Source of the DNA: an uncultured virus (IMG/VR IMGVR_UViG_3300030060_004020)
Taxonomy: Duplodnaviria; Heunggongvirae; Uroviricota; Caudoviricetes
Virus record (IMG/VR): IMGVR_UViG_3300030060_004020
Location: 1 to 64,000 of that record
Reading direction: 5' to 3' (one strand)
Length of the DNA: 64,000 nt
The notes under the pieces are model-generated. The model worked only from the letters and a program-made list of their open reading frames with translations, was not told the DNA's origin and searched no databases. The translations under genes and the position numbers were made by a program. Below are positions 9,076-62,289 of the stretch, one piece after another (the stretch's first letter is position 1; each line of letters opens with the position of its first letter).

Positions 9076-9230
9076 TGGGAACTATGGAATGTATGATATG
9101 TAATGAAGATGAATATCTTAAGAGATTTCATTTAGGAAATGAAGAATGGTTGGTATGCAGAAATTGTGTGGACTATGGCCTTATTATGTTAATAAATAAA
9201 GTGAAACCAAAAAAGGAGTTGGAAATATGA
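9075..9230 (+). CDS. Small Zn-finger protein, 51 aa
   Basis: Hand-translated CMIC...CRNC; coupled both ends. Confidence 0.6.
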   Translation: MGTMECMICNEDEYLKRFHLGNEEWLVCRNCVDYGLIMLINKVKPKKELEI

Positions 9231-9499: not shown

Positions 9500-9598
9500 G
9501 AGAGTAATATGTATGAAANNNNNNNNNNCATAATCCTCAATTTGAGGGTAAGTTTCATTGTAAAAGATGTGCAGAAGAAATAAAAATGAGGAATAAAA

Positions 9599-10665: not shown

Positions 10666-10859
10666 ATGAAAAAGAAATGAAAAATAAAATAGAAAGATTA
10701 GAAGAAAGAATTGAAGGCTTAGAAAGGCAATTGGATGAAATGTATTTGGAGTTGGAAAGAACTCACATTACTAGGGCTAGTATGCGAGAAGTCATGGAAG
10801 AAGTTGCTAAGTTAGCAAATCAACCTGTTGGAATGATGTTTAATACTTATAGTGCGTGA
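10662..10859 (+). CDS. Coiled-coil protein
   Basis: 65 aa, GGTGA RBS. Confidence 0.55.
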   Translation: MNEKEMKNKIERLEERIEGLERQLDEMYLELERTHITRASMREVMEEVAKLANQPVGMMFNTYSA

Positions 10860-10863
10860 TATT

Positions 10864-11769
10864 ATGAAAGTAGTTTACGGACATACAGATTCGATTTATG
10901 TTCAAATCGATTCTGTTGAAAAGGCACAAGACGCTATTAAAGAAATAGAGTCTAGTGTTAGAGAACACTTTCCTAATGTTATGGGATTAGAACAACACCC
11001 TGTAGTGCTAGAGTTTGAGAAATACTATTCAGCATTAGGTGTTGGAACGACTAAGAATAGAAATGCAGGTATGATAACTTGGAAAGATGGAGAATGGTTA
11101 GATGAGCCGGAGTTTATTATGACAGGTTTTACCGCCAAGAGAGTTAGTGAAACCAAACTTGCTAAAGAAGTTCAAACTGATGTATTGACAATGTGGGTGA
11201 ATGAAAAACCTATGTTAGAAATCAACAAATATCTACACAATAAATACATGTCAGTATTGGATGGAAAGGTCGAACTACAAGATATTATTAAAAGAAGTAG
11301 GCTTAAAGAAAATAGATTGAAAGTAAAATGCTCTAAAGTTACAGAGCATGGATGGGGTTGTAAATCAAGATACACTTTACATGATTGCTTACCTTTAAGA
11401 TGGTGTAAAAAATGTGGTGAAGATGTTAAGAACTTTAGGACTTTAGATGGTAAAAAACCAACAATAGGTTCGGGTATTGCAGGTGTATTACATGCGAAGC
11501 AAAAAGACATTACATTTGACGACTCTTACTTATACCTTAAAGTAGCAAAGTCCGGTGAAGTATTTACACACCCACTAACTAAAGAAGTGAAGACTGTTGA
11601 ATATGTAGCAGGTTCTCGGTATGTTGATTTTGATAAGTATAAACCCGATTATCAACATTATGCCGAGCAAGTAATAAAGAAGGCCGAACCAATTTATAAG
11701 GCTATGAATTGGGATTTGTCTAATATTAAATCGGGTAAAATACAAACAAATTTGGAGGAATGGTTTTGA
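10864..11769 (+). CDS. polB: Family B DNA polymerase, C-terminal subunit (motif C, thumb)
   Basis: MKVVYGHTDSIYV, LEFEKYY, KNRNAG, Cys-rich insert, PIP box QTNLEEWF. Confidence 0.92.
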   Translation: MKVVYGHTDSIYVQIDSVEKAQDAIKEIESSVREHFPNVMGLEQHPVVLEFEKYYSALGVGTTKNRNAGMITWKDGEWLDEPEFIMTGFTAKRVSETKLAKEVQTDVLTMWVNEKPMLEINKYLHNKYMSVLDGKVELQDIIKRSRLKENRLKVKCSKVTEHGWGCKSRYTLHDCLPLRWCKKCGEDVKNFRTLDGKKPTIGSGIAGVLHAKQKDITFDDSYLYLKVAKSGEVFTHPLTKEVKTVEYVAGSRYVDFDKYKPDYQHYAEQVIKKAEPIYKAMNWDLSNIKSGKIQTNLEEWF

Positions 11770-40674: not shown

Positions 40675-41250
40675 TTAATCATCCTCGTAAAGTTCTCTTC
40701 TTTCTCGCTTTATTCTCTCGCTTTCTTTTCGGTGTCTTTCTTCTACTTCTTTAACTTTTTTAACTTTAACATTATTAACATTCCAAATACAACCCGAATC
40801 CATATCCCAACTATCGGGCCAATAAAGTTTATGCCAATTATAATCAACATTTCTAATTTCAATACCATCGTAGTCTTCTGTCACTGCGGGTAATTCGGGT
40901 TTAGTAGGGTTTTTAACCCATCTTATTTCATTTCCAAATGTTTTTGTTTTAACTCCGTATTTATCATCGAAGTCTTGTAGTTGTTTTTCACCATTTATTT
41001 TTAAAATTTTAACATTAGACACATCTAATTCTAAGATATAATTATATTTGTCTATCCAACCATAATCATATAAGGTTCTTGATAGCCAACCCCCTGCACC
41101 TAATGTAAAAGAATACCACAACCCCGTTTGCCCCCCACTAATAGAGCGAGGCTTATTAGAAACAGGTTTTAATTCATATGTTCTTTTTTCTATTTTGTGA
41201 TTCTTAGATAAAGCAAATCTTCTAACAGACTTTAGCAAATTAAACCACAT
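40675..41250 (-). CDS. Hypothetical protein with N-terminal WxxLLK tag
   Basis: MWFNLLKS; GLWYS, YDGIEI, WDMDSGCIWN. Confidence 0.6.
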   Translation of the reverse strand: MWFNLLKSVRRFALSKNHKIEKRTYELKPVSNKPRSISGGQTGLWYSFTLGAGGWLSRTLYDYGWIDKYNYILELDVSNVKILKINGEKQLQDFDDKYGVKTKTFGNEIRWVKNPTKPELPAVTEDYDGIEIRNVDYNWHKLYWPDSWDMDSGCIWNVNNVKVKKVKEVEERHRKESERIKRERRELYEDD

Positions 41251-43930: not shown

Positions 43931-45268
43931 TCATTGTATGTTTGTTATCTTTCCTTGACCTTTGAAGAAGGAACATCCGACTTCACCAATTGTTCGATAC
44001 AAAGCCCTGTTACCTAGAGTTCCGACACCGAATGGATTTCCATTAGCGATACCATCTTCAAAGTATTGTGTTGGCTTCATAACCGATAGCCACAAATGGT
44101 CTGTATCAAGGAATAGTAAATCACTTAGTTTTGTTGAAGCACTACCTGTTTGGCACATATCCTTAACAGGGATTAGTGGAATATCGTAGTATGTTGCTAC
44201 TCTAAATCCAACTTCTTGTCCTTTAACTCCTCTAACACCGTTTACAGTTGGCACAACTTCTTTTCTGTCCATGAATCTTTCTTGGCTTTGTAACAAGTCA
44301 GCAATTGCTTGAATTGTATCATATCCAGTTAGAATAACCTTTGGAGAACCACCGGCTAGTCTTAGGTTTCTAATCATATCATTAAGTCTAGTTAGAGTTA
44401 GTGAACGAACATCGCCGGAAGTGTAGCCAGTTCCACAATCTACTTCTGCATCAAGGAAAGATGCCGCAGTAAATCTCTCACTACCGTAAATCTTTCCTAG
44501 AGCGTTAGAAGCGGAAGTTGTATCAGTAGCGATAACTCCCTCGTCAATTTTTAGCAATTCATCTCTTGAAGTAATAACCTTGTTTAGAGAAGTATAGTTG
44601 TTTCCGATATTTGGCATAGCGGATGATTCACCATAATGCTCTAGTGGCATAACCAACATTTTGTTTTGTACTTCAGCATGGTGCTTACCCATATCTTCAC
44701 GCATTTGCGCTCTAATATCGCCAATACCATCATCAATTTGTGCCATTTCCATAGCAAGTTCGCTGAAATCAAATTGGTGTGCAACTACTTTAGGACTCAT
44801 GTTTAGTTGAGCGTAAGTTGGTGCAATTGGGCCAAGTCCATCTTGTGCTGTTGATAGTCCCGCATTCTCCGGTACACCACCAATCATATCTGCTCTTGGA
44901 CTATCGGAACCTAGTTCTGCTAAGTTTTCTGTTCCAGTTGCGTCAACAGTAAACAAGTTACCGCTTCCACCGGCAGGTCGTGACTTTAGAACTCTCCATC
45001 CACTAGATGAATAAGGTCTTTTTGAAATCATTGAAAGAGCGTTAACTTCTCTATTCAACATTGACCATACTTTTTGTCCATAAACAATATTGTATAATGC
45101 AGATACATCACTAACAGCACTACCGGAGAATGCCGGAGAACCATCATGTCCTGTGTGTATTCCACCAATAGCACCTGCTTGCTTCAAAAGAGCGTTACCG
45201 GCAGGTAGATTGTTTATTCCATATGTGCTTGCTTCTAAATCTGCGATTGTGTTAATATAACCTGTCAT
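43931..45268 (-). CDS. Major capsid protein (HK97 fold)
   Basis: After protease; PTYAQLNMSPKVVAH, YYDIPLIP, LLFLDTDHL. Confidence 0.9.
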   Translation of the reverse strand: MTGYINTIADLEASTYGINNLPAGNALLKQAGAIGGIHTGHDGSPAFSGSAVSDVSALYNIVYGQKVWSMLNREVNALSMISKRPYSSSGWRVLKSRPAGGSGNLFTVDATGTENLAELGSDSPRADMIGGVPENAGLSTAQDGLGPIAPTYAQLNMSPKVVAHQFDFSELAMEMAQIDDGIGDIRAQMREDMGKHHAEVQNKMLVMPLEHYGESSAMPNIGNNYTSLNKVITSRDELLKIDEGVIATDTTSASNALGKIYGSERFTAASFLDAEVDCGTGYTSGDVRSLTLTRLNDMIRNLRLAGGSPKVILTGYDTIQAIADLLQSQERFMDRKEVVPTVNGVRGVKGQEVGFRVATYYDIPLIPVKDMCQTGSASTKLSDLLFLDTDHLWLSVMKPTQYFEDGIANGNPFGVGTLGNRALYRTIGEVGCSFFKGQGKITNIQ

Positions 45269-45269
45269 C

Positions 45270-46502
45270 TTAAATTCCTCCTACCATTTTGTGAATGTCC
45301 GACCAATCCATGTTAGCCATTTCATCCATACTTGGGAGTTGTACTGCGGATTCTTCTTGAGCCTTTAGAATAGTTTCCTTTTCTGCTGTCAAAGATTTCC
45401 TTAGTTGTGTAAATTCATCTTTAAGAGAAGCAATTTCGCTTTGTGCATCATAGTTTTGCTTTGCGATTGTGTTTTCCCTTGATGTAATTTCAGTAGCGAA
45501 TCTTGCTTCAAATGATTTCTTTAGGTTATCATAAGCAAGAGTTTCTAACTGCTCTTGTCGGAAAGCCTCATAAGCCTTCTCGATGTTTCCAACTGACAAA
45601 TCAAGAGTATCGAACTCTCCATTGTTAAATGCCTTTACAACAGGCATGTCGGAAGCAGTTGGCTTACCGTTGTTAATAACAATACGGTCAGCAGGTTCTC
45701 CAATTTGGTTTCCTGCACCATCAAGGGTTCTTAGATATGCTTTGTTTGAATCGTCTTGGTATTCGCCCATGTTTTCATCTTCTACATCAGCATGTTCCAT
45801 GTCTTCTTCATCAGTCATTTCGGAGTCTCCTCTTTCCATGTAATCTGCCATTTCTTCATCTTTGTGCATGCCCTTTTCATCGAGCAACTCTTCTTCTTTA
45901 CGAAGCGTATTTACTTCTTCTAGCAAAGTATCTAACTCCGCTAATGCTTTTTCTAGTTTTTCACTCATATCATTGTCTCCTTTATCTTGTTTCAAAATAT
46001 CGAATCTCGCTTCGGGGTTAATTCCTTTTTCGCATATAGTAATTTCATGCAACTCTAACTTGCTGATTTCATTATACTCACCTAAGTTTTCATTACTTTT
46101 CTTTACTTTTTGGAGGGCTTGACCTCCTATGCTAAAAGACCTCAATGACCCTTTGCGAATGTTTCTGCCAACTTCTTTGGCTTTCTCTATATCATCTCGT
46201 AGTTTAATTACTACAAAGAAACCAACATCATCTACTTCGGATTTCCAAAGCCTACCTGTGCTGTCTCTATAAGAATCTACAACTTCTCCAACTTGAACAT
46301 TGGAATGGTTTGTCATGACATTTCTAAATTTAGAATCTTTCATGAACTTAATAACTGCTTCTTCCAATGCAGGTAAAGTAATTAAATCATTTTGTTTATC
46401 TACAATTTCAATACTAGCGTAGCCACCAATCATTAATTCATCACTTCTAGCCTTGAGGATGGAAAACCCATCATTTCTCGTTGCTAAAACTGCCGATGTC
46501 AT
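45270..46502 (-). CDS. Prohead protease with C-terminal scaffold domain
   Basis: IGGYAS..VDKQND, MTNH, FSIGG, LHEITIC..GINPEA; acidic coiled-coil C-half; start moved to ATG 46502. Confidence 0.92.
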   Translation of the reverse strand: MTSAVLATRNDGFSILKARSDELMIGGYASIEIVDKQNDLITLPALEEAVIKFMKDSKFRNVMTNHSNVQVGEVVDSYRDSTGRLWKSEVDDVGFFVVIKLRDDIEKAKEVGRNIRKGSLRSFSIGGQALQKVKKSNENLGEYNEISKLELHEITICEKGINPEARFDILKQDKGDNDMSEKLEKALAELDTLLEEVNTLRKEEELLDEKGMHKDEEMADYMERGDSEMTDEEDMEHADVEDENMGEYQDDSNKAYLRTLDGAGNQIGEPADRIVINNGKPTASDMPVVKAFNNGEFDTLDLSVGNIEKAYEAFRQEQLETLAYDNLKKSFEARFATEITSRENTIAKQNYDAQSEIASLKDEFTQLRKSLTAEKETILKAQEESAVQLPSMDEMANMDWSDIHKMVGGI

Positions 46503-46524
46503 TTCGCTCAAAGGGAAAAAATTT

Positions 46525-46545
46525 CCTTTTAATATATAATACACA
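46525..46545 (-). promoter_or_regulatory. Putative TATA-box promoter of protease-MCP unit
   Basis: TTATATATTAAAA about 30 nt upstream of the ATG. Confidence 0.4.
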
Positions 46546-46561
46546 CGGTTATTTTAAACTA

Positions 46562-49120
46562 TTAATCCTCTTTTGGAGGTAATTTAAGACTACTATACTT
46601 ATCTTCGTAAATATTCCACAATCCTTTATCTGCGTCAGTATCAGCAGGTTTCTGTTCATAGCCTGTCCATGCTAACCACATTCTTTTTCCTTTAACTTCA
46701 AGCATTCTAACATGAAGTTTAGTTTCAAACTTATTACCATCTAGGAAATATTCGTGATAGCCTTCCTTTTGAACGCCCAACTTAACATCACCACTATCAA
46801 TTAGTTTCCGCTTAGATATATTCTTAGCAACAATAGCAGGGAATTTGCCCGCCTTTCCAAATAATTCAAACACATCATCTTGTGAATCTAATCTAACCAT
46901 CCAATTGATACTTTCATCACCTAACTTCATTACTATGTTTAGATTATCGTCATCTCTAAGGTATATCTTAAACTCACCACTTCTATATTTTTCAGGAGTT
47001 TCGTATTCTTTCTTAATGGTGTCCATCAATATTTTATCATTTTCAGCAAACAACTTTTTTGTTTTAGCATCAAATGATATGCCGTCTCTATTTTCAAACC
47101 AATCCTTAACTCGGCTTTCTTTACTTTCTAGTATGTCTTGATATTCTTTTTTGTGATTTTTAACTAAGAAATTGTGAACAACTTTTGGTACTTGTGCGCC
47201 CTTCTCCTTTAAGAAATTAAATACAGCAACAGTAAGTTTAGATTGTTTTGTTTTCATTATCTCTTCTGCTTGTTCTTTCCACAAGTCTAAATCCATTAGT
47301 GCATTCTTAGCCATTAGATTGTTTTCTTCAAATCCATAGATAGTAAAACCATCCATGTCTCCTTTGATTATAATATTGGCTTCACCGTGAATATGGTCAG
47401 AAACTACAATACCTTTCTCTACTTCTTCTACATTATATTTCAAAGATTTATCCGTATCATTAATTAGCATTTGTAGAGTAACTAACTTATCCGGTGTCTT
47501 ACTTTCAGCGATTTCATTTATCTTTGCTGAATAAACAACCGGCTTACCCTTAACTTCTTTTACCTTATCAATAGAAACTCTAACCACTTCTCCGACATCT
47601 GCTGAAACTTTAGTATTAGTGGCACTACCAACATTAAGATAATTTACTCCTTCTATCTTTTCACCTTCCTCTTCAACCGGCCCTGCTCCTAATTTGTAAG
47701 AAAAGTTAGAACCACTTTTCTTTTTATCAAGAACAATTAAATCTAATTCTACAAATGGTTTCCAACGAATCCACTTAGGATTCTTTTTTGTTCCTAAGAA
47801 ATATGTAGATGTAGAATCTTTAATCATAGCCCCTTCTGCTGTCGGCATTTCCATAATTTTCTTAGCGTATTCTTCTACATCTTTTAGATTATCTGCAACT
47901 CTAGTATCTTTTTTAGATGGGAATGTCAAGTCTTCACTAGAATGTATAGAATAGTTGTTAAACATTATCTGCATTCTGTTTTGTAGTGTATCTTCCATGA
48001 GGTTTTCTTCATTGTGTCTCATGATGTCAAACACATGAATTCTAACCTTGCCCTCTCTTTTTCCCTCTAAGTATTCTACTGCATCTTTTCTTTTAAGAGA
48101 GTCATCTCCATCAAATAAAACTAAAGAAGCATCCAAGATACAATCACCAAAATGTTTTTTCTTTAGTTCCTCAACGGCTTCTTTACACTTTGATGTAATA
48201 TCTTTTCCTGTATAATCATAAACTTTTATATTCTTATCTATTTTATGTAATTGAATTCTAAAACCATCGTATTTTTCTTGAACATAAAACTCACCACTGA
48301 ATCCCTTTAATTCGTTCATATCTTCTATTGTAAATATTCTATACATTGGTTTGTTAGGGATTATGAAATCACTTTGGGCTTTTTCTTCATCGGACTTCTT
48401 TTCTTTTAAAATAATTTTATCATTTTCTTTTTTATTACCCTTTTCGTCTTTAGCCTTAGCCTCATCTAAATCTGTATCTATATCTTCTAGTTCAGCCCAT
48501 TCTTCTTTAGTATTCTTAGATAAGAATATTAATTCTAACATATTCATAGCGGCCTTTACCTTAGACTCCACTTTCTTAGAATCTTTATCGTCACCATAAT
48601 GCTCTATGATATAAAGTGCAACATCATCTACTTCTAAATCTAATCCCATAAGTCCTTCTGTAATGTCATCGGGCTTCATGTCTTTAATTGAATATGCTTC
48701 TTTTGGTAGTGCCTTATCATCTTCTCTAATAGCATAGTGAACAAACTTAATCATAAGTTCGGGTGATTCTAATAATGCCTCTAATACATTACCTTTAAAT
48801 TTTTTAGCGAAGGGGTCACTAACTTCTTCCGAAGAATACCTAAGTGCCTTTATTGCTTCATACAATTTTTCAGCATTATTTGTTGTTGAGTCGGAAACAT
48901 CATTTGATTCTAATAAATCTTCATCAATATAATCCTTAAGTTCATTTGAAAGAGCATCCGTCATTTCATATGCGTCTTTAATTTTATTTACTGCGTTTCT
49001 CCACTTAGAACCGTATTCCTTTGGGTCGGTTCTTGCTGAAAGATAAGCGACTCTTGTTCTTTCAAAGAGTCTTAGAATATCTGTGGATATTGACTTATCC
49101 TTCTCAATAAGAAGCGGCAT
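46562..49120 (-). CDS. ATP-dependent ligase-like multidomain protein in head module
   Basis: QEKYDGFR, VFDIM, EGAMIK, KWIRWKP; helical N-domain; possible LigD-phosphoesterase-like C-domain. Confidence 0.8.
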   Translation of the reverse strand: MPLLIEKDKSISTDILRLFERTRVAYLSARTDPKEYGSKWRNAVNKIKDAYEMTDALSNELKDYIDEDLLESNDVSDSTTNNAEKLYEAIKALRYSSEEVSDPFAKKFKGNVLEALLESPELMIKFVHYAIREDDKALPKEAYSIKDMKPDDITEGLMGLDLEVDDVALYIIEHYGDDKDSKKVESKVKAAMNMLELIFLSKNTKEEWAELEDIDTDLDEAKAKDEKGNKKENDKIILKEKKSDEEKAQSDFIIPNKPMYRIFTIEDMNELKGFSGEFYVQEKYDGFRIQLHKIDKNIKVYDYTGKDITSKCKEAVEELKKKHFGDCILDASLVLFDGDDSLKRKDAVEYLEGKREGKVRIHVFDIMRHNEENLMEDTLQNRMQIMFNNYSIHSSEDLTFPSKKDTRVADNLKDVEEYAKKIMEMPTAEGAMIKDSTSTYFLGTKKNPKWIRWKPFVELDLIVLDKKKSGSNFSYKLGAGPVEEEGEKIEGVNYLNVGSATNTKVSADVGEVVRVSIDKVKEVKGKPVVYSAKINEIAESKTPDKLVTLQMLINDTDKSLKYNVEEVEKGIVVSDHIHGEANIIIKGDMDGFTIYGFEENNLMAKNALMDLDLWKEQAEEIMKTKQSKLTVAVFNFLKEKGAQVPKVVHNFLVKNHKKEYQDILESKESRVKDWFENRDGISFDAKTKKLFAENDKILMDTIKKEYETPEKYRSGEFKIYLRDDDNLNIVMKLGDESINWMVRLDSQDDVFELFGKAGKFPAIVAKNISKRKLIDSGDVKLGVQKEGYHEYFLDGNKFETKLHVRMLEVKGKRMWLAWTGYEQKPADTDADKGLWNIYEDKYSSLKLPPKED

Positions 49121-49130
49121 GTAAAATACC

Positions 49131-49892
49131 TCAAATAATAGATTCAATGTTTTGCACTATTGATAGTATTCCATTATCGGGGTCACTAATGCGTTCTCTA
49201 ATAGTTTCTATCTTATCTAAATTTCTTCTATTCTCTTTAGTTTCATTTTCTCTAAAGTTTTTTTCCATGTCTCTAATTAATAAAGGTAACATAAGGTCTA
49301 AATCTTTAATTCGGTCTTTTATTCTTCTATATCTCATTTGTATAGGTTTCTTAGTTTTATCTTGTTTCTTTAAACTCTTTGTTATCGGCCCAACTCTATC
49401 TTTTTTGAGTCTTGGACTTGTTGGAGGAATGACTTTTATTTTTTCAATAATATATCTTTCCGAACTACCATCGGCTGACTTGGCTATAATCTGTAATTTT
49501 GCATCAGCAATAAAACTAGGATTAGATGAGGAAGAAGATTCTTGTTTTACATCACTAAATCGGTTAGCAAGAGTTTCCGTAAGTTTATCCATAGAAAATG
49601 TTTTACCAATCAAGGATTTTCCAACTAATTGTAAACCCCCCTCATCTTGTTTCTTTAAACTCTCACCTGCTAAACCATATCCTTCTTTCTTTTGAGTTTG
49701 ATTAGTAATCTTAGAAGCATCTTGCACCTTTGGCCTCTTAATCTTTTCAACTTCGGGGTCTGTATCTATTTCCAATACTTGAGTTGGCTCAATGTTCTTT
49801 CTTTTCTTTGCGCTTAATTCTTCTTTAGCCTTTCTTGCTTTTTCAATAGCAAGGCTAACTATTCTTTCTTCTTTTGTTACTCTTTCCGGCAT
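49131..49892 (-). CDS. Modular basic head-region protein
   Basis: Two SLKKQD motifs separate three segments. Confidence 0.6.
   Translation of the reverse strand: MPERVTKEERIVSLAIEKARKAKEELSAKKRKNIEPTQVLEIDTDPEVEKIKRPKVQDASKITNQTQKKEGYGLAGESLKKQDEGGLQLVGKSLIGKTFSMDKLTETLANRFSDVKQESSSSSNPSFIADAKLQIIAKSADGSSERYIIEKIKVIPPTSPRLKKDRVGPITKSLKKQDKTKKPIQMRYRRIKDRIKDLDLMLPLLIRDMEKNFRENETKENRRNLDKIETIRERISDPDNGILSIVQNIESII
49359..49663. repeat. 20-bp perfect direct repeat ATCTTGTTTCTTTAAACTCT (49359-49378, 49644-49663)
   Basis: Read directly; copies 285 bp (95 codons) apart. Confidence 0.85.
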
Positions 49893-49899
49893 AGTATCA

Positions 49900-50193
49900 T
49901 CACTCCAAATAAAACACTAAATCTCGATTAGTTAGTGTTATTTTTTCGTAGCCCATATTTTCGTATAATTTATTTGCTACCTCTAATGCTTTTTCTCTAC
50001 TCATATCTAAATCCTCTAAAGTATCAATAAAGGCATAAGTTTTTTTTCTTTTTCCTGCGCTTTCGATTATAGGGTCTACAATTTCTTCAAACAATTTTTC
50101 ATATTCTTTCATAGAAAGATTATCATTTTTTGGCACTTCATCTGCTCTTGGATTCCTAATCGGTGGCATCTTTAACACATCTTCCCAACTCAT
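49900..50193 (-). CDS. Small protein with N-terminal WxxVLK tag
   Basis: MSWEDVLKM. Confidence 0.65.
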   Translation of the reverse strand: MSWEDVLKMPPIRNPRADEVPKNDNLSMKEYEKLFEEIVDPIIESAGKRKKTYAFIDTLEDLDMSREKALEVANKLYENMGYEKITLTNRDLVFYLE

Positions 50194-50442
50194 CTATTGA
50201 CCCCCTACATTCTCTACCATTTTATGAATATCTTTCCAGTCCATGTTTCCAACATCCTTTAGTGGTGAACCACCGATAGTTCCGTTATTCATCTTGGGAG
50301 TCGGACTATCAACAACAACAAAACCGGACTTCATTAGTAAGTTATCATCATTGTAAACTGCTTTCTCTAAACTCTCTATCTTAGCACTAAGGGCTTTGAT
50401 AATCTCAAGTAGTTCTTCATTAATTGTATTTTCTTCGCTCAT
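50194..50442 (-). CDS. Mini-scaffold-like coiled-coil protein
   Basis: Coiled coil; ends NMDWKDIHKMV like the protease C-terminus. Confidence 0.65.
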   Translation of the reverse strand: MSEENTINEELLEIIKALSAKIESLEKAVYNDDNLLMKSGFVVVDSPTPKMNNGTIGGSPLKDVGNMDWKDIHKMVENVGGQ

Positions 50443-50801
50443 CTCTTTTCCTCCTTTGGTGGATATACTAAATCTCTTAATTGTCTGTAAAGCAACTCAT
50501 AGTCCTTACGAAGTTCCGTAGCCGAAGCAACTATATCTATATTCCGTTCATCCATAGACTTCATTTTCTTTGTAAGTTTCTTATCGGACTTAACTAACTC
50601 TACATCTTTTAATGCAGTAATCAATTCACCTAGTTTTGTAAAGTCCTGTCCAAAAAATTCAGTTGGTTGTGCCGCCTGTAATACTTTCTTTAGACGCTTA
50701 GTTTGTTTCTTATCCAGTGTGTCTAATATATTCTTCTTTACTTTCTCTTCTTTCTTTATGGTAAATTCTTTACCTTCTTCATAATAATCCCATGTCATCA
50801 C
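50439..50801 (-). CDS. Hypothetical head-region protein
   Basis: 120 aa ORF in operon. Confidence 0.6.
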   Translation of the reverse strand: MMTWDYYEEGKEFTIKKEEKVKKNILDTLDKKQTKRLKKVLQAAQPTEFFGQDFTKLGELITALKDVELVKSDKKLTKKMKSMDERNIDIVASATELRKDYELLYRQLRDLVYPPKEEKR

Positions 50802-54331: not shown

Positions 54332-54559
54332 TCAAAACGGAATATTCTCTTTCTTACCTCTCCTTTTTTGTGGGGGTAAGATAACATCGGGAACATCATT
54401 AGATGCTCTTGTTGCTTTATGAGTTGTGTCCGGTGGTAATCCACCAACAGAAAAATCACGATTCTTCGTAGTCTTTCTAGTTTCATTTGCATTCTGTGTT
54501 CTAACTCTCGCTAATTCTTTCTTTAGTCTAATCTCTTTCTGTCTATTATCTTCTGTCAT
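54332..54559 (-). CDS. Small basic protein
   Basis: 75 aa, coupled to portal. Confidence 0.55.
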   Translation of the reverse strand: MTEDNRQKEIRLKKELARVRTQNANETRKTTKNRDFSVGGLPPDTTHKATRASNDVPDVILPPQKRRGKKENIPF

Positions 54560-56205
54560 TAACCTGTCCTCCTTTCACTTCTTCTATCTACATTTTGATT
54601 ACCTGCGTCTTCCGGTAATCCGCTTAATCTTTTATCCGGCCCAACACTCATAGATGGTTTATTCCTAGTAGCGGGTGGATTTTCTTGTGGCTTACTGCCG
54701 CCACCTTCTGCAAACTGTCTTGTTTGTTCGTCTAAATCTCTTTGGTCTAAATTAGAACCGGCTAATGGGTCTTTTTCCATTTGTCCATCTTCGCCTTGTG
54801 GTTGTTGTTCTTCCGGTTGTGGTTCGGGCTTCTTGTAAGTAAAATTACCATCTTCGTCCATATCAACTTCAAAGCCTAAGTTCTTTATTGATGCCGCAAT
54901 ATTAACTTCAATCTCTTTCTTTCTTAATCCTGCAATCTCATCTTCTTCTTCACTTGGAGGCAACTTTAGTTTCCAATCTGTAATACCAAATTGCTTTACA
55001 AGATAAGGGAATACATATTCATTGTAAACATTTTGAGCCATTTGAACGGCTCTATTAGTAACAAGAATTTGCATACCTTCATTATTCAATCCACCACTTG
55101 TAGTATTATCAGCCATAAAGACTTTGCTTACTCCATAAAACGCTGATATTCTATCTCTTAAATCATCCTTAACAGAAATATAATCCATTTCTTTTAGGCT
55201 ATCCATGAACTTAATCCATTCAACTGCACCCTTTCCACCTTCTGCTTCTATCCCCATAACAGGAATAAAATGAGGGTCTGCTTCCATCTTTTCTTTTACT
55301 CCTCTCCAAAAGGCTCTCATTGAATCCATGTTTCTAGTTTGAACTGCTAGTAATCCTCTCGGCATTCTACTCTTAGTATAGGCTGAATTAACATAATTCT
55401 CCATAGCAATTAAAGTCATAATGTGATTATACAATGTAATCACAGGAGAGAAACCATAAAGTCTTGAAGGACTATATTTACTGAAATGCAATACTTCTCC
55501 TTTAATGAAATACTGTTCATCGCCCTTTGCTCTATTAACATAGTGTATAGGCTTCAAAGGAGAACCACAAGTTTCGCAAGTATCGTGCGGTTCTGTTGAA
55601 ATAACATCTCTATGGTGAACACAAGTAAATCCTTTGTTACCTTTTACGCCATCTTCATCAGCATAGATAAACATAGTAACAGGGTCGCCACGATACACTT
55701 CCTTGACACGGTGCATTCTAATTTTACCATTACCGTCTAAGAAATATTCCTTAACCATAACTATGTATGCGTCATCCATAATATTCAAATCATCCTCTAG
55801 TTCTTTTAAGACATCAATAAACAATTGCTCGGATGAATTTACATATCCCTCTAAAAACTTTTCAGCATATTCTAATTGTTTAACATCGGGTATTTTTAAA
55901 TCAGTAGAGCCACATCTTGAACATTCTTGAACAGGTCTTGTGTGGGTTTTTCCGCAATTATTACACTTTGCTTCAAATGCTTTTTCCCAAACATAACCTC
56001 TCCTGTAGACTTCCTGCTTCAGTTGAGTTATACAAGTTCTAACAATAACTGATTGTTGAACCATAGAGTAGATGATGGGGGCGGTCATCATGTAGTTATT
56101 TTGCCTTTCTTGAATACCCATGTTGTAAATATTCCTGTCGGCAGGTTTTGGTGTAGTACGCCTGAAAAGATTTGTGAAAGAGAACCGTCTTCGTTTTTCT
56201 GCCAT
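54559..56205 (-). CDS. Portal protein with Zn-ribbon inserts
   Basis: EVLHF..YSP..LYGFSPV, MPRGLL, ISAFYGVS; CNNC/CSRC and CVHH/CETC pairs. Confidence 0.88.
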   Translation of the reverse strand: MAEKRRRFSFTNLFRRTTPKPADRNIYNMGIQERQNNYMMTAPIIYSMVQQSVIVRTCITQLKQEVYRRGYVWEKAFEAKCNNCGKTHTRPVQECSRCGSTDLKIPDVKQLEYAEKFLEGYVNSSEQLFIDVLKELEDDLNIMDDAYIVMVKEYFLDGNGKIRMHRVKEVYRGDPVTMFIYADEDGVKGNKGFTCVHHRDVISTEPHDTCETCGSPLKPIHYVNRAKGDEQYFIKGEVLHFSKYSPSRLYGFSPVITLYNHIMTLIAMENYVNSAYTKSRMPRGLLAVQTRNMDSMRAFWRGVKEKMEADPHFIPVMGIEAEGGKGAVEWIKFMDSLKEMDYISVKDDLRDRISAFYGVSKVFMADNTTSGGLNNEGMQILVTNRAVQMAQNVYNEYVFPYLVKQFGITDWKLKLPPSEEEDEIAGLRKKEIEVNIAASIKNLGFEVDMDEDGNFTYKKPEPQPEEQQPQGEDGQMEKDPLAGSNLDQRDLDEQTRQFAEGGGSKPQENPPATRNKPSMSVGPDKRLSGLPEDAGNQNVDRRSERRTG

Positions 56206-56242: not shown

Positions 56243-56482
56243 TTATAGAATCTTCGCAAAGGCTTTCCTCAAAACTCTACGCCAACCACCGCTAATGCTT
56301 TTCTTTCTTTTAGGTTTAGCATCATATTCTTTGGTGCTTTTATTAGCATACAAAGCGGCCATGTATTTCTTTGCTTTTGACTTAGACATGCCATGTTTGT
56401 TCTTTCTTTTATTGGTATCAGTATTAACAACATAGTAGCCGTTCTTTCCGACTCTTAATTCATAGGGCAAAATGTTCACCAC
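56243..56482 (-). CDS. Small basic protein with C-terminal WxxVLxK motif
   Basis: PY...YYVVN...MAALYAN; GGWRRVLRKA. Confidence 0.6.
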   Translation of the reverse strand: MVNILPYELRVGKNGYYVVNTDTNKRKNKHGMSKSKAKKYMAALYANKSTKEYDAKPKRKKSISGGWRRVLRKAFAKIL

Positions 56483-56763
56483 AATTTCTTACATGCTAGA
56501 CATTTAGGTGTTGTGATTCTACCTTTGCATTGGTCACAATTATGTCTTGATTTGAAATTAGCCCTGCGCTTTTTGTTGGTATGAGTTCCGCCTCCTCTAT
56601 TCTTTCCTTTACCTTTGTAATTGCCATATCCTTTAGCACCCGCATGAATCTTTTTTCCTTCATGAGTAAGCATCATAATTTTTTTACCTGCTCTATCGGA
56701 AGGATATACTCGACCTACTCTCATGTCTTTCTTATCTTTTTTACACACATCGAACCAAGTCAT
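56476..56763 (-). CDS. Small basic protein with WxxVxK tag
   Basis: MTWFDVCKK; SDRAGKK...KIHAGAKGY...RRANFKSRHNC. Confidence 0.65.
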   Translation of the reverse strand: MTWFDVCKKDKKDMRVGRVYPSDRAGKKIMMLTHEGKKIHAGAKGYGNYKGKGKNRGGGTHTNKKRRANFKSRHNCDQCKGRITTPKCLACKKLW

Positions 56764-57164
56764 TGTTTACCCCTCATTTGATTTTCTTTAGAACGCTTAT
56801 CGTCTTTTATCGGGCCACCTTTAGCCCATGTTCTACAAGACCTAGCAGAATGACATTTGAAATGGTGCATCCAACAATAACCTAGTTTACCATCATCATC
56901 TAATTCTAACGGCATACATTTTTCCATTCGAGGAGATATATCAAACGCTACACAATTACTACAGTTAGAATCCATAGCGGCATCTACCGATGTATTCCAA
57001 AAGTCTGCAATCTCTTCCCAATACCCTTCGGGCTTCTTTACATTAAGTGGGCCATATTGTATATGTTCTGCTTTTATGGCGGCATTTCTATTCTCAGTGT
57101 TTAACTTCAAATCCTGTGTTGCTCTAGGACATTCTAGTTGTTTAAGAATAATGTGCCAAGTCAT
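56760..57164 (-). CDS. Cys-rich protein with WxxILK tag
   Basis: MTWHIILKQ; CPRATQD, CSNCVAF, GYCWMHHFKCHSARSCRTW. Confidence 0.65.
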   Translation of the reverse strand: MTWHIILKQLECPRATQDLKLNTENRNAAIKAEHIQYGPLNVKKPEGYWEEIADFWNTSVDAAMDSNCSNCVAFDISPRMEKCMPLELDDDGKLGYCWMHHFKCHSARSCRTWAKGGPIKDDKRSKENQMRGKQ

Positions 57165-57168
57165 AAAA

Positions 57169-57585
57169 TCATCTCGGACTATGTGTGTAAATATCTCCAT
57201 CTTTGTGCATGAATATTTTACCTTCTTTTTCTAATTTCTTCAAGGCCGCTTTAATCTCAGTTTCCTTTCCAAATTGTTTTAGGTTTTTCATTCCTAATGC
57301 TCCGCCCTCTTTCTTAATTTCTCTTAAGATTTGACGCTCTAATTTTGCTGTCTTCATTCTAGGACTAATGTTCATGAAGTCTGTCATTTCTTCGGGGTCT
57401 TTACCAAAAATAGATTTCTTAACCTTTCTTCGTTTAAGTTCATCAAAATCTGCAACTGTTATTTTTCCTTTCGGTTTAGCCACATCTAATTCTTTCTGCC
57501 CACCATAAAGCATCTTTTCATCTTCTTTATGAGTTCCACAATGGGCTTTCTCTTCTTCTGTTTTTAGTATATATTTCCAATTCAT
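57169..57585 (-). CDS. Protein with WxxILK tag and C-terminal winged-helix-like region
   Basis: MNWKYILKT; LYGGQKELD; IKAALKKLEKEGKI. Confidence 0.65.
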   Translation of the reverse strand: MNWKYILKTEEEKAHCGTHKEDEKMLYGGQKELDVAKPKGKITVADFDELKRRKVKKSIFGKDPEEMTDFMNISPRMKTAKLERQILREIKKEGGALGMKNLKQFGKETEIKAALKKLEKEGKIFMHKDGDIYTHSPR

Positions 57586-57935
57586 CTTGTAAACGCTCCT
57601 CTACTTCTGCTCTTTGTTTTTTGCTTACTCGCTTCCTTTCTTTGTTTAGCGTAAGTATGTGCCGCTTTTAGCCTTTTCTTAGTATCGGGGTCTTTAGCAT
57701 TTTTAACTGCGGCTCGTAATCTTTGCTCCACTAAATTAATTATTTGTGATTGTCTTTTATGAGACTTAGATTTGAATGCACTACTACTAAATGTTTCTTG
57801 AACATCTTTTCTTGTTTTAAATTTTACAGGAACAGTATCTTTTGGGTTTTCATCTGTGTATAATCTTCTTGCTGAACCTTTTGGTTTTTTACCCGTTCCC
57901 TTTTTCGGGTCAGTCTTTAAGATATTTTGCCACAT
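57582..57935 (-). CDS. Basic protein with WxxILK tag
   Basis: MWQNILKT; GTGKKPKGSARRLYTDENPKDTV. Confidence 0.65.
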   Translation of the reverse strand: MWQNILKTDPKKGTGKKPKGSARRLYTDENPKDTVPVKFKTRKDVQETFSSSAFKSKSHKRQSQIINLVEQRLRAAVKNAKDPDTKKRLKAAHTYAKQRKEASKQKTKSRSRGAFTR

Positions 57936-57940
57936 AATAA

Positions 57941-58249
57941 TCACTTTTGACTAAACTTTTTTCCTGTCGGAACATGCTGAATACCTTTCTTACGACCCTT
58001 TCTTTTCTTAGCGTCTTGATACCTTAGAGTTTTTTTATCTGTTCTTTGATAAGTTGCTCTCGGCATATATCTTCCTTTAGTTCTTGACTTAGGCTTCTTT
58101 CCTTTTGCTTTCGCTCTATGCTGTTCGGCACTTCCCCAATCTTCTTGTGTCCATTGGGTTAAATCCTGTTGCCTTTTTGATTTGGCTTTTAGGATATTCC
58201 ACCATCTAATTACGATAGCCGCCACCTGCCGCTTTATATCTTCTAGCAA
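57941..58249 (-). CDS. Basic protein with WxxILK tag (start uncertain)
   Basis: IRWWNILKA; WTQEDW...GRYMP. Confidence 0.55.
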   Translation of the reverse strand: MLEDIKRQVAAIVIRWWNILKAKSKRQQDLTQWTQEDWGSAEQHRAKAKGKKPKSRTKGRYMPRATYQRTDKKTLRYQDAKKRKGRKKGIQHVPTGKKFSQK

Positions 58250-58457
58250 CTATCTGTGCTTTTCTAGCCGACCATTGACCTGCCGCCCCTCCTTTGCTTC
58301 CTCTTTTAACTTCATTGAATATTCTTCTACGAAGTGCAGGTTTAGTATAATTACCCGCTTGATTTACTGTTGATTTTCTCTTAGGCTTTTTTCTTTTTTT
58401 ACGGGCTTTCTTGCCTCTTCTACCGGATTTTCTTTTCAAAATTTCTTGCCAACTCAT
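58206..58457 (-). CDS. Basic protein with WxxILK tag (DUF5872-like N-half)
   Basis: MSWQEILKR; NYTKP...GQWSARKAQ...YKAAGGGY. Confidence 0.65.
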   Translation of the reverse strand: MSWQEILKRKSGRRGKKARKKRKKPKRKSTVNQAGNYTKPALRRRIFNEVKRGSKGGAAGQWSARKAQIVARRYKAAGGGYRN

Positions 58458-58604: not shown

Positions 58605-60848
58605 TCACATCTTGTCTATTAAGTAAGCAACATGGTGGCTTAGTTTATCGTCGGGGTATTCTTTTAATTCATCAATAGTAATCCATTTGTAATCACTATG
58701 TTCAAACGATAGAGTGGGATTCCAGTCATCATCTACTTCTATCCTAAAACAATGGTATTTCTTTGGTGGTTTCATATTCCTATCAAAGTGAACGCCTAAT
58801 TTAGATGAAGGTTTTTTCTTTAATCCTAACTCTTCACCTGCTTCAATCATACAAACTTTTTCTGCATCGGGAGTTCCATCAGCATTAAACTCATCAAGTT
58901 CTTCTACTTTACCTCCGGCAAATTCCCACATACCTATCATAGTATCTTCTTCGGGAGAACGCTGAACAATTAAAACTTTATCTCCTTTGAAAACTGCCGC
59001 ACCTGCCGCATGTCTAACACCATCTTTATCCAATAAGAATTTCTTTTTGTTGTTTCCTTTAGCATACCAAGAAAGACCCTTATCTTCCATTTCCGACTTT
59101 TCAATAGTAGTTCCCGTAATAAAATCATCAATTGTATAGTTTTTATCAACAGAACCAACGGCTTTTCCGTAGCCTATATTCAACGCTATCTGCATTATCG
59201 CTTCAGCAGTTGGTTCTTTTCTTTGCGGTATTCTAACTAGTTGATTATAAAAATGAGAAGGCTTTGCACCATCATCATCAAAATCATCGGACTTATCATC
59301 TAAGTTTACCTTGCCATCTTTGATAGGGGTTTTCCATTCATAGTTCAGTGGCTCTTTACCAAACTCTTTTTCTATTTTTGGTATTTGCTCATTCCACCAT
59401 TTTCTACCATCAAAGTCTTTATCTTGTCTTAAGAAACCTTCAGCATCTTTTTTTAAATCCTCAAACATTTCATCCAATTCATCCATGCTCGCTTTGATAA
59501 TAACTCCGCCAATGTTTTCCATACTATCCATTATAGACATCTTACAGTTATCTTTGTATTTCTGTATGTTATCAAGATATATTCCTTCTTTTAGCCAATC
59601 GAAACCTACATGGTCTTTGTGATTCTCCCACTTCATTAACTTGAATATCTCATCGCATCTTTCTTTATACCAATCTTGTTTTTTGTAAGACTTCTTCATT
59701 CGTATAAGTTCCATAAGCAATTTAGCATTGCCTTTCTTTAGTCTAAAATGAGGAAGGCATTTTTCCAATAAACCATAAACATCATCTTGAGAATAAAAGT
59801 TTAATCTTTGAACAGGTCTAGTTTGTTGAGGAGACTTTTGATTTAGATGTAACTTACCGAAACCTATGCTCTTGTGCATTTCTTCCATGAATGCTCTACC
59901 TCTTTCTCCTGTGGCAATAAGTCCGACTCTAGGGTTGTGGTTTCTATCCATTGTGATATAACCATCCGAATCAATAAAAGCCGCAGTATAAGCCCAAATA
60001 TTTTTCTTAAGCATTGTTGGTAATTTATAATATGCCCCATCAACATTAGCAACATCTAACTTCTTTACCATTTTAGAAATCATATTTGTTGTTGTGCTTT
60101 TATGCAAAGTGTTTGGCATTCTATCATGTATTTGTTTAGCACCGATAGAAGGACTCTTGATAATTTCACTTTCAATAAATGACATGATTCTTTCTTTCTT
60201 GCTCTTAGTGATAGATTGGTCTGTAATGTTTTTTATCTGTTGCTTGTAGTCTCTTTTAGCAACTCGACATTCTTTTTCTAATTGAGCATATTCTTTAGAG
60301 TAAACCATATCTGTTTTCTTTAAGTCACCCTCCCAATACTTGCATATTGCATCAATAATATTTCTTCTACCATTTACAGAATCAATCTTATTTATTTTCA
60401 TTAGGTCTTTCTCACTAAAGCCCATCTTAAGTATTGCAGGTTTGTATGGTTTAATCCAATAAATAGAATCTATGCATTTGTTGATATGGTCGGAGTAGCC
60501 ATCAATAACAGTATCAATGGCCTTAGCCATTCTAGTTCTTTGCTCTCCCTTTAGTTTTCTTCGAGCCTTTCTCATTTTCTTTACGAGGTCGGGTATGTTT
60601 TCACCATCAATAGAATATTCACTTGGGAAAGAACTCAATTGTTTTCTAGCATCACTAGCGTTAATGTTTAGATTCTTAGATAGTAAATTTACTGCTTCAT
60701 AATCCGACATAATATAATCATTAACAGAAGCAAGTTTAGTTCCTAATACTTCTTCCATTTCATCCTTAGTATCTTCTTGTTCTTCTTCGAGTTCAGCGAG
60801 CCTAGCCATGTTTTGTGAACCTTGTCTATACTCTTCTGCTGTTGGCAT
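58605..60848 (-). CDS. Multidomain protein: helical, HTH, LAGLIDADG and Nudix
   Basis: YTAAFIDSDGYI; WEFAGGKVE...EAGEELGL; EHSDYKWI. Confidence 0.8.
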   Translation of the reverse strand: MPTAEEYRQGSQNMARLAELEEEQEDTKDEMEEVLGTKLASVNDYIMSDYEAVNLLSKNLNINASDARKQLSSFPSEYSIDGENIPDLVKKMRKARRKLKGEQRTRMAKAIDTVIDGYSDHINKCIDSIYWIKPYKPAILKMGFSEKDLMKINKIDSVNGRRNIIDAICKYWEGDLKKTDMVYSKEYAQLEKECRVAKRDYKQQIKNITDQSITKSKKERIMSFIESEIIKSPSIGAKQIHDRMPNTLHKSTTTNMISKMVKKLDVANVDGAYYKLPTMLKKNIWAYTAAFIDSDGYITMDRNHNPRVGLIATGERGRAFMEEMHKSIGFGKLHLNQKSPQQTRPVQRLNFYSQDDVYGLLEKCLPHFRLKKGNAKLLMELIRMKKSYKKQDWYKERCDEIFKLMKWENHKDHVGFDWLKEGIYLDNIQKYKDNCKMSIMDSMENIGGVIIKASMDELDEMFEDLKKDAEGFLRQDKDFDGRKWWNEQIPKIEKEFGKEPLNYEWKTPIKDGKVNLDDKSDDFDDDGAKPSHFYNQLVRIPQRKEPTAEAIMQIALNIGYGKAVGSVDKNYTIDDFITGTTIEKSEMEDKGLSWYAKGNNKKKFLLDKDGVRHAAGAAVFKGDKVLIVQRSPEEDTMIGMWEFAGGKVEELDEFNADGTPDAEKVCMIEAGEELGLKKKPSSKLGVHFDRNMKPPKKYHCFRIEVDDDWNPTLSFEHSDYKWITIDELKEYPDDKLSHHVAYLIDKM

Positions 60849-60858
60849 TTATATCACC

Positions 60859-62289
60859 TTAAAAATTAATTCCCATAACTCCTTGAGAGCGTTTATACTT
60901 ATTGACCTTTGGCGGGTCAAATAGTCCCATGTCATCTAAGAGTATGAATGTTTCACTCATTGTATGGGTGGCGGCATTAGCCAATGCTAAACTCATAACC
61001 ATGTCATCATGCGCTCCTATACCCTCAAACTTTCCTTTGTCTGTAATAGCAAACATAGATAGTTCTTCAATCAAAGTAGAAGTAACTCGACGGCTTTCTT
61101 CATTAGCGTAAGGTAATATTATCTTACCATTCTCAAAATTCATTTGTAAACTTAGAATAATCTCTTCTTTCTTTTTTCTAGTAGTATTAAAGTCATGAAC
61201 ATTTAAGTCTGTAACATTTCTAATCTCTTGTGTAAATGATTTAGCAAATGTATTTGTTTCAAACAATATTGCTTCGGGCTGAAACACTTTACCAATTAAT
61301 TTCACCTTCTGTATGTTCTCTCTAAACTCTACATTCTTAGAACGGTCAATAAACACAATAGTTTTATTATCATTTTCATCTACCTCTAATACAGTAATTA
61401 CATTGTAGTCACCATCAGTAGAGATAGCGGGGTCAATGCCAACATAGTATTTGTAGCCCTCTCTACGCATGGGTTTCAAAACATGGTCTTTGCTTTTTGC
61501 CGCTTCTAAATATTCGGGATTAAATAGAGAAGTTCCCGTAGATATAGGAACACACATATATTCTCTTGTAAACATTAGAGAGCCGACTTCAGCCTTTCTC
61601 GCCATAAGAGCATCATAATCCCATCTGTTCGGCCATAGCGGTTCATTAAGAGCATTAAGACAGGGGTATGTTCTAAGAGTATATGCAGGGTTTTCAGCGA
61701 GTTGTTGGTAAATATCTGTATAACTAAATGGAGTTCCAATAACTCTTAGAGAAGCAGTATGGTGAAGTGTTGGTATCATGTCACCATAAAACCAATCTGT
61801 AACCTTTTGAATTCCTGTCATACTAAACTCTTTCAACGGGTCATCAATAATAATCTCTTGAGGGTGAAGACCACGAATCTGTGAGCCAACAGAACGCTCT
61901 AAGATTTGATTACCATTAGTAAGTGTGATATTTCCAATTGCCCAACCCTTTGCCGGTTTGTATTTTTTTAACATTGGATGATTGAATAGTTTATCTATGT
62001 CTCTCATGTGAACCAAAGTCTGTTTTTGGTTAGAGGAAATATATAGCATTTGATATGGTGGTTCTCTAAAGACTAAATTCCATACAACCCAAGCATGCAT
62101 AAATACTGATTTACCGTGACCTCTTGAACAAATAATAACAGTCCTTTGTGTATCGTTCATCAAGTCATGCCACTCTTCTTGATGCTTGGCAAACTCCCAA
62201 CCTAAAACATTTTGAAAGAAATAAGGAAATGAGTTTTTGGATAGTTCCATATCCATTTGATGCTCAAAGTTAAATGCGTCTATATCCAT
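60859..62289 (-). CDS. terL: Terminase large subunit
   Basis: SRGHGKS, IIIDDP, VIGTP, VGIDPA, HDDMVMSLALA. Confidence 0.95.
   Translation of the reverse strand: MDIDAFNFEHQMDMELSKNSFPYFFQNVLGWEFAKHQEEWHDLMNDTQRTVIICSRGHGKSVFMHAWVVWNLVFREPPYQMLYISSNQKQTLVHMRDIDKLFNHPMLKKYKPAKGWAIGNITLTNGNQILERSVGSQIRGLHPQEIIIDDPLKEFSMTGIQKVTDWFYGDMIPTLHHTASLRVIGTPFSYTDIYQQLAENPAYTLRTYPCLNALNEPLWPNRWDYDALMARKAEVGSLMFTREYMCVPISTGTSLFNPEYLEAAKSKDHVLKPMRREGYKYYVGIDPAISTDGDYNVITVLEVDENDNKTIVFIDRSKNVEFRENIQKVKLIGKVFQPEAILFETNTFAKSFTQEIRNVTDLNVHDFNTTRKKKEEIILSLQMNFENGKIILPYANEESRRVTSTLIEELSMFAITDKGKFEGIGAHDDMVMSLALANAATHTMSETFILLDDMGLFDPPKVNKYKRSQGVMGINF

Follow-up and report, generated by a model that had tools for sequence, protein, structure and literature searches.

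A C-terminal tryptophan helix shared by a protease-scaffold fusion and a small helical protein in the head module of a magrovirus

Results

Two proteins of the head module end in the same motif

We analysed the first 64,000 nucleotides (nt; hereafter the window) of a 78-kb genome recorded in IMG/VR as IMGVR_UViG_3300030060_004020. The window comes from a magrovirus, a tailed virus of marine archaea, and it covers the head-assembly module of this virus; magroviruses are abundant viruses of uncultured ocean archaea. Replication genes lie on the + strand between 1 and 18 kb, and tail and head genes on the - strand between 18 and 64 kb. Our subject is a short motif built around a tryptophan (W), found at the C-terminal end of two proteins of the head module, namely a protease-scaffold fusion of 424 amino acids (aa) and a small helical protein of 82 aa.

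The open reading frame (ORF) at 45270-46544 (- strand) encodes a fusion of two parts, a prohead serine protease and a long helical scaffold. Residues 39-185 match the Pfam family Peptidase_S78 (PF04586; E 4.2e-9, 37.2 bits against a cut-off of 21), and the protein matches the PHROG head maturation protease at E 4.7e-17. The S78 domain (approximately residues 28-188) is followed by an acidic disordered stretch, long helices and a C-terminal W helix. In the AlphaFold2 (AF2) model, which is poor overall (mean predicted local distance difference test, pLDDT, 52.1), helices are placed at residues 193-223, 318-363, 367-399, 406-410 and 414-423. The best part of the model consists of the long helices 318-363 and 367-399, with pLDDT of 71-88 in the blocks covering residues 321-380; a long helical C-terminal extension is thus present after the S78 domain in this model, and the motif forms the terminal helix 414-423, past the long helices. 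A search of the PDB with the protease profile returned nothing at E<=0.01.

The 82-aa protein, which the preliminary description of this DNA called a mini-scaffold, is encoded at 50194-50442 (- strand), approximately 3.6 kb upstream of the protease gene with four genes in between. It had no Pfam or PHROG family match. Its AF2 model, built from a 47-row alignment (mean pLDDT 63.6), shows an N-terminal helix (residues 3-38), a disordered linker (pLDDT<50 at 42-62) and the C-terminal W helix (69-80). The coiled coils that the preliminary description had placed upstream of the motif are in line with the helices of both models, at the low confidence of these models.

The two proteins end in ...MANMDWSDIHKMVGGI (424-aa protein) and ...VGNMDWKDIHKMVENVGGQ (82-aa protein). 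The motif itself reads NMDWSDIHKMV at residues 411-421 of 424 in the protease-scaffold (45282-45314, - strand) and NMDWKDIHKMV at residues 66-76 of 82 in the small protein (50215-50247, - strand). The shared NMDWxDIHKMV reported by the preliminary description is therefore confirmed: 10 of the 11 residues are identical, and the pattern MDW.DI.KM occurs in six frames at these two sites only. BLASTP aligned the two proteins over a single 16-residue piece (10/16 identical, pairwise E 6e-6) and detected no homology between small protein and scaffold outside it. The DNA of the two 11-mers is identical at 27 of 33 nt and carries three synonymous differences, which indicates that the motif is kept by selection at the protein level, and which rules out a recent DNA duplication as its source. 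In a helix, the W and the residues at +3, +4 and +7 from it would lie on one face.

The motif pair is conserved in four lineages

Close relatives of the protease are encoded on more than 570 IMG/VR stretches. We took 80 related loci with a protease identity of 68-90% as the close-relative set (lineage 1, which is that of the window) and fetched further loci for three lineages (lineages 2 to 4; one at 58% and two at 46% protease identity), so that four lineages were compared. An attempt to add another one by searching with the distant protease P0288 gave no locus.

In lineage 1, the core M.W..IHKM was present in 66 of the 75 protease-like ORFs with a stop. The other nine comprise three reading LDWSDIHKM, four reading MDWSDIHRF, one truncated ORF and one unrelated ORF of 662 aa. 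The small ORF was found in 48 of the 80 loci and was never missing where the upstream flank reached 4.5 kb or more; 46 of these 48 ORFs carry the same core, the remaining two reading DIHELV. The motif exceptions in this lineage retain DW.DIH, while the flanks vary on both sides of the motif (in sequences picked by the core pattern).

At E<=0.001 the small protein belongs to a family of 170, of which the 120 listed measure 46-100 aa. In an alignment of 47 sequences (the window protein and 46 of the 120 listed members), W69 and I72 never change, and conservation reaches at least 90% at M67, H73 and V76; positions 74 and 75 vary, reading KM, EL, SV, DV or EV. The N-terminal helix region is conserved even better than the motif, with 18 invariant columns between N8 and P49. 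On the protease side, W414 is invariant over a 21-sequence alignment of the four lineages.

A protease-scaffold and a small upstream ORF, both ending in a W helix, were found in all four lineages. The protease and small-ORF motifs read M[DE]W[SA]DIHKMV and M[DE]W[KS][DE]IHKMV in lineage 1, MSW[DE]EVH.LA and M[ST]W.[ED]IH[ED]MA in lineage 2, [MLIV]SW.DIH.[LIF][AVT] and M[SDK]W.[ED]I[HRN].[MI][TVI] in lineage 3, and L[ST]W[ED]EV[NE].L[VA] and M[DE]W.[ED][IV]D[ED]LV in lineage 4. The loose pattern used to collect these pairs also caught a few unrelated ORF tails, which remain in the counts. The core common to the lineages is hydrophobic(-2)-x-W-x-[DE]-[IV]-x-x-[LMIF]. Conservation among relatives, which the preliminary description had proposed as a check, thus holds for the motif in both proteins, and the pairing of the protease-scaffold with the small ORF is old.

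Many distant S78 protease-scaffold proteins also end in a related W helix. Scoring the protease against 1.84 billion representatives gave 1240 matches at E<=0.001. Among the best 150 of the 1240, the pattern M[STDEN][WYF].[DEQN][ILVM] lay in the last 30 residues of 14 of the 111 distant S78 proteins of at least 330 aa; elsewhere it occurred 4 times in 58,020 residues (approximately 0.002 per 30 residues), so that approximately 0.2 would be expected by chance against the 14 found. Tails of distant S78 proteins with a long C-terminal extension include KMSWQELEAF, NMSWEEVHQLAG, LSWGDIHNLARGD and KTPWNEIHREV. A second C-terminal class among the distant S78 proteins reads MSL.DL.K[IV]PFS[KR]L. One distant S78 protease of 809 aa (P0384), with the related tail TMSFSQVHEL..., is fused to a rubrerythrin (ferritin-like) domain and to DUF6582. 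It resembles a cargo built into the protease-scaffold chain, reminiscent of the ferritin cargo of encapsulins.

N-terminal tags on the structural strand resemble the start of the motif

The preliminary description had also pointed to the gene adjacent to that of the small protein, at 49900-50193 (- strand), which starts with MSWEDVLKM (50167-50193). This is correct, and the alignment with MDWSDIHKM is identical at M, W, D, K and M. The gene encodes a variable protein of 97 aa without any homolog at E<=1e-5 in the 80 related loci; in other loci different ORFs with such an N-terminus stand beside the small protein. The N-terminal tag M-x-W-x-x-[ILVM]-[ILVMC]-[KR] starts 18 ORFs in the 78-kb genome, and all 18 lie on the - strand, that of the structural genes.

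Six small genes between a 747-aa gene and the portal gene (56476-58457, - strand) include four with M-x-W-x-x-[IV]-[LC]-K, reading MTWFDVCK, MTWHIILK, MNWKYILK and MSWQEILK. The two remaining genes of the six have variants of the tag, namely MWQNILK, with no residue between M and W (57582-57944), and WWNILK, with no start M at W-2 (57941-58249). A further variant, MWFNLLK, starts a 191-aa gene (40675-41250, - strand), four orthologs of which keep MWF[ND][LVI][LI]K. Upstream of the small protein, a conserved 120-aa gene (50439-50801, - strand; 47 homologous ORFs in the 80 loci) has the N-terminus MTWDYYEEGKEF[IT][IL]K, which resembles a tag split by an 8-residue insert (MTW ... ILK). The 83-aa tagged protein at 58206-58457 (- strand) is very basic past the tag (MSWQEILKRKSGRRGKKARKKRKK...), and its residues 22-82 match phrog_17747 end to end (E 9.4e-31); the tag and the basic stretch therefore represent an N-terminal addition to a known phage protein family.

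We trained a tag matrix solely on 16 N-terminal tags of this genome and ran it against 43,331 six-frame positions. The next places below the training tags, ranks 17-20, were taken by MDWKDIHK (the tail of the small protein), two further N-terminal tags and MDWSDIHK (the tail of the protease). Ranks 17 and 20 make the likeness between tag and C-terminal motif statistically real, with M-x-W-x-[DE]-[IV] as the core common to both.

In whole records, the tag pattern matched 11 times in one lineage-1 genome, 7+2, 9 and 9+1 times in lineage 3, and 13 and 12 times in lineage 4, with 0-1 matches for the reversed-pattern controls. In four near-complete lineage-2 genomes (95-107 kb) the counts were 0, 0, 0 and 1, and the single match contains a stop codon. 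The C-terminal pair, which is present in lineage 2, therefore works in the absence of tags.

In lineage 2, the genes of the small protein and of the protease are separated by a single giant gene (1804-2143 aa; L092:3514-9945, L107:4516-9930, L134:4173-9971 and L152:4392-9965). No repeating internal tag-like joints turned up in the large head-module proteins, either in the window or in lineage 2. A few tail-side proteins of lineage 2 (L134:14081-15395) carry A-W-x-[VI]-L-K near an end, as KAWRVLKA, DAWSVLKS (at the C-terminus) and IAWSILKY, with a spacing one residue shorter than that of the lineage-1 tag.

The capsid protein and other features of the module

The major capsid protein, our presumed docking partner, is encoded at 43931-45268 (- strand; 445 aa) and has the HK97 fold (Pfam SU10_MCP E 4.7e-6; PHROG major head protein E 6.8e-22). 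Its N-arm, compared over the four lineages, is conserved, and ..LLK.. at residues 27-29 is invariant in a 51-sequence alignment. When the capsid protein and the 82-aa protein were modelled as a complex, from alignments of 51 and 47 rows respectively, both runs scored 0.00, which weighs neither way. F-x-I-L-K strings occur in the protease at residues 27-31 (N-terminus) and 181-185 (end of the protease fold); these strings and the L-L-K of the capsid N-arm are kept in the four lineages and are possible protease sites.

The context of the head module is fixed by the portal protein (54559-56205, - strand; Pfam Phage_portal E 1.9e-10, PHROG portal E 5.6e-68), and the module also holds the large terminase (60859-62289, - strand). 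Directly past the portal, a 75-aa gene (54332-54559, - strand) has a C-terminus ...KRRGKKENIPF that is kept in lineage 1 (also L022:88-315 and L054:2073-2300) and is another conserved terminal peptide within the head module. The 747-aa protein between the terminase and the tagged small genes (58605-60848, - strand) has an HNH endonuclease-like region (PHROG E 2.5e-6, residues 286-404) and a C-terminal NUDIX domain (Pfam E 2.9e-11).

Between the portal and the protease lies the gene of an 861-aa protein (46562-49147, - strand) whose residues 281-463 match an ATP-dependent DNA ligase domain (Pfam E 6.1e-23); this position is kept in lineage 1 (834-996 aa). Philosof et al. (2017) place a ligase within the structural module of magroviruses, and passages of PMC5434244 give a structural-module ligase and a split DNA polymerase as traits of magrovirus groups A/B and B1. 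On the + strand of the window, the long ORFs 7411-9075 and 10852-11769, with small ORFs between them at 9227-10045, are putative halves of a split DNA polymerase B, as in magrovirus group B1 according to the same passages. Near 15.6 kb the sequence contains a run of N, and the genome has 20 N in all.

Passages of PMC5434244, PMC11706807 and PMC8651126, and the titles and abstract openings of other papers on magroviruses, contained no mention of either motif, and in the passages of these three papers we found no scaffold-related content on magrovirus head assembly.

Discussion

A proposed docking handle for the procapsid interior

The presence of the shared motif as a conserved, functional C-terminal element is supported by our results. 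We propose that the W helix shared by the protease-scaffold and the small protein is a docking handle for the procapsid interior, a reading that we regard as moderately probable. Behind it stand a motif that both proteins keep at their C-terminal ends in four lineages and a helix-linker-helix build. According to this model, both proteins end in a short amphipathic helix, hydrophobic-x-W-x-[DE]-[IV]-x-x-[LMIF]-x, carried on a flexible linker, and this helix would anchor them on the inside of the procapsid as it assembles. Solved scaffold tails suggest, by analogy, a contact with the N-arm region of the major capsid protein. The 82-aa protein would be another internal assembly protein, with a gene of its own, and would use the same site as the scaffold. 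Its strongly conserved N-terminal helix may have a second job, for example dimerising or holding another internal component. The W helix and the small partner protein would provide defined, very conserved handles for reconstituting procapsid assembly.

Several points weigh against this model. Docking itself, and the capsid protein as the partner, are what we infer from the arrangement. PDB profile searches detected no sequence relation to gp46 of phage 80alpha, to CpmB of SaPI1 or to solved scaffold tails. The search with the small-protein profile returned no scaffold chain among 11 matches at E<=10, its top matches being designed or GCN4 coiled coils (E 0.05-8). In the nearest cultured relative, the halovirus HVTV-1, the match is limited to the protease domain (29% identity), and the protease C-terminus has no clear copy of the motif.

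The agreement between the two motifs at the same locus has to be read with similar caution. Across all lineages it exceeds random pairing, since none of 2000 shuffles reached the observed identity (67 distinct pairs). Within lineages, the observed identity was reached in 463 of 2000 shuffles, which is not significant, and the concordance thus comes from four related groups only. Furthermore, one motif changes alone in single loci, from KM to RF in four proteases and from KM to EL in two small ORFs. We therefore give the motif concordance between protease and small ORF little weight as a sign of a shared, co-evolving partner; common descent or gene conversion could have produced it.

Are the tags mimics of the docking helix?

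The preliminary description took the C-terminal motif for a coat-binding helix and the N-terminal tags for mimics of it. The first part fits the conserved C-terminal element of both proteins in four lineages and a build like that of 80alpha scaffold protein (SP) and CpmB, whereas simple mimicry finds only partial support. Its content is that the tags imitate the scaffold docking helix and load approximately 18 small proteins into the capsid via the same pocket of the capsid protein. The likeness between tags and motif withstands scrutiny, as the matrix trained on tags alone places both C-terminal motifs at ranks 17 and 20, and the protease motifs of other lineages (MSWGDIH, MSWEEVH) are closer still to tags such as MSWQDIL and MSWEDVL. 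In addition, W-2 is hydrophobic (M, L, I or V) in the C-terminal motifs, where no start codon forces the choice, the codons of the tags vary at synonymous sites, which indicates selection at the protein level, and the tags are confined to the structural-gene strand.

Against mimicry, lineage 2 has the C-terminal pair without tags, and the tag does not change between lineages 1, 3 and 4, whose C-terminal motifs differ at W-1, W+4 and W+5. The L(+4) and K(+5) of the tag are near-invariant, yet these positions are free in the C-terminal motifs, whose hydrophobic residues at +6/+7 are in turn not kept in the tags. Met1 is probably removed by methionine aminopeptidase, since S or T comes next in most tags, and the 97-aa gene with which the comparison began has no homolog in the 80 related loci. 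Altogether, mimicry in this form seems possible but rather doubtful. The tags are a later, lineage-restricted addition with extra requirements (L-K), which, judging from the sequences, may use the same site as the C-terminal motif. If they do, the packaged protein cargo would be predictable from sequence, and foreign proteins could be addressed into the capsid of an archaeal virus.

Alternatively, the likeness of tag and motif may be composite or coincidental. In that case I-L-K would be a site of the prohead protease, the tag being cut after its Lys, the W helix would be a separate element, and the K at W+5 of the C-terminal motif would be incidental. The S78-family protease of HK97 cuts the capsid protein after a Lys, and [IL]-L-K is conserved at three further sites of the core head proteins in all four lineages. 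These are the capsid N-arm (..ALLKQ.., ..ELLKA.., ..ALLKA.., ..[SG][LI]LK.., with L28 and K29 invariant), the N-terminus of the protease (F.ILK[AS], with K31 at least 90% conserved) and the end of the protease domain (F.ILK, with F181, I183 and K185 invariant). The K at W+5 of the C-terminal motif is confined to lineage 1, with E, S, D, N or Q elsewhere, and the N-terminal capsid-targeting sequence of phage T4 is clipped by the head protease, according to a title cited in PMC9958956. However, these proteins are rich in Lys and the short tripeptide [IL]LK is common in them, a structural role could account for the three conserved sites (F.ILK ends the protease fold), and no conserved pattern lies past the Lys of the tag. 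Moreover, cleavage explains L-K and leaves aside the M-x-W-x-[DE]-[IV] common to tags and C-terminal motif. We consider this explanation tentative and on balance unlikely, although worth keeping in view.

Taken together with the Lys preference of HK97, the conserved [IL]-L-K sites raise the idea that the tag could combine the opening of the docking helix with a site for the protease. Such a tag would be a two-part address, in which M-x-W-x-[DE]-[IV] copies the start of the docking helix and [IV]-L-K copies the protease site, to be clipped afterwards, and which carries a changing set of approximately 10-20 small proteins per genome on the binding sites of the scaffold. This combination is speculative and, in our opinion, unlikely. 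Were it true, packaged cargo would be readable from sequence, and there would be a concrete receptor for N-terminal capsid targeting, a matter still called unresolved for T4.

Possible partners other than the capsid protein

The shared helix might instead dock to the portal, to another internal protein (the large variable one or the ligase-domain protein) or to the scaffold itself. The gene order around the small protein is conserved and places its gene near the portal, with those of the large internal proteins, and the T4 N-terminal targeting sequence sends proteins to the scaffolding core, by a way that passages of PMC9958956 call unresolved. On the other hand, the scaffold C-termini that have been mapped contact the capsid protein (80alpha SP and CpmB, with P22 and phi29 discussed, in passages of PMC5644958). 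A scaffold tail would also imply hundreds of copies, and the capsid protein would be the only partner needed in such number. Finally, the large internal proteins vary from 551 to 2143 aa between lineages, while the core of the motif is constant. A partner other than the capsid protein therefore appears quite improbable to us, and docking to the capsid protein remains the reading we prefer.

Comparison with known systems

In herpesviruses (UL26/UL26.5), lambda (C/Nu3) and P2 (gpO), a head protease and a scaffold with the same C-terminal tail are produced by nested in-frame translation, and the herpesvirus scaffold tail binds the major capsid protein. The arrangement described here differs, in that the second protein is encoded by a separate gene and has 16 residues in common with the first. 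The small protein is thus not a second scaffold from a nested gene, its own gene being that at 50194-50442 (an internal start within the protease gene was not examined).

For HK97, Duda and colleagues (2013) reportedly located an encapsidation signal in the C-terminal part of the gp4 protease. As in the window, an S78-family prohead protease would be carried into the procapsid by its C-terminal part, with the difference that gp4 has no scaffold domain. An hhalign comparison of the 424-aa protein with gp4 aligned the protease domains only (residues 36-188 to 23-162, 136 columns, E 2.6e-4), and no W helix was found at the gp4 C-terminus. Encapsulin cargo-loading peptides are short terminal peptides that dock cargo inside a shell of the HK97 fold. 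The shell considered here differs in belonging to a virus with portal, terminase and protease, and the peptide sequence is unrelated.

For the N-terminal tags, the T4 capsid targeting sequence (Mullaney and Black 1996, cited in PMC9958956) offers the closest model. Passages of this source describe an N-terminal peptide of approximately 10 aa, common to different proteins, that loads them into the prohead; the likeness to our tags is one of build. A short N-terminal peptide on unrelated structural-strand proteins is likewise what we found (18 ORFs, and 7-13 per genome in lineages 1, 3 and 4). The difference is that the tag here resembles the scaffold's own C-terminal helix, which the passages of PMC9958956 do not report for T4.

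The best comparison for the pair itself is 80alpha gp46 (SP) with SaPI1 CpmB (PDB 6B0X and 6B23; Dearborn et al. 2017, PMC5644958), where a C-terminal helix is likewise all that the scaffold and the small second protein have in common. According to passages of that paper, the last 16-21 residues of the 80alpha scaffold form a helix and a hook that lie on the N-arm helix of the capsid protein and in the A/P cleft. CpmB is described there as a small protein with an N-terminal dimerisation domain and a tail nearly identical to that of the 80alpha scaffold, with which it competes for the site. As modelled to residue 72, it consists of an N-terminal dimerisation helix joined to the tail, which is the build predicted for the 82-aa protein. 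There are differences, since the helix is W-x-[DE]-[IV] here and a helix with an RIIK hook in 80alpha and CpmB, and the scaffold here is fused to the protease. In addition, the gene of CpmB belongs to a parasite, and its product is a competitor of the helper's scaffold, whereas the 82-aa protein is the product of the virus's own gene, kept in four lineages. The shared-tail arrangement of this magrovirus is, in conclusion, a new variation on known phage scaffold pairs such as 80alpha SP/CpmB.

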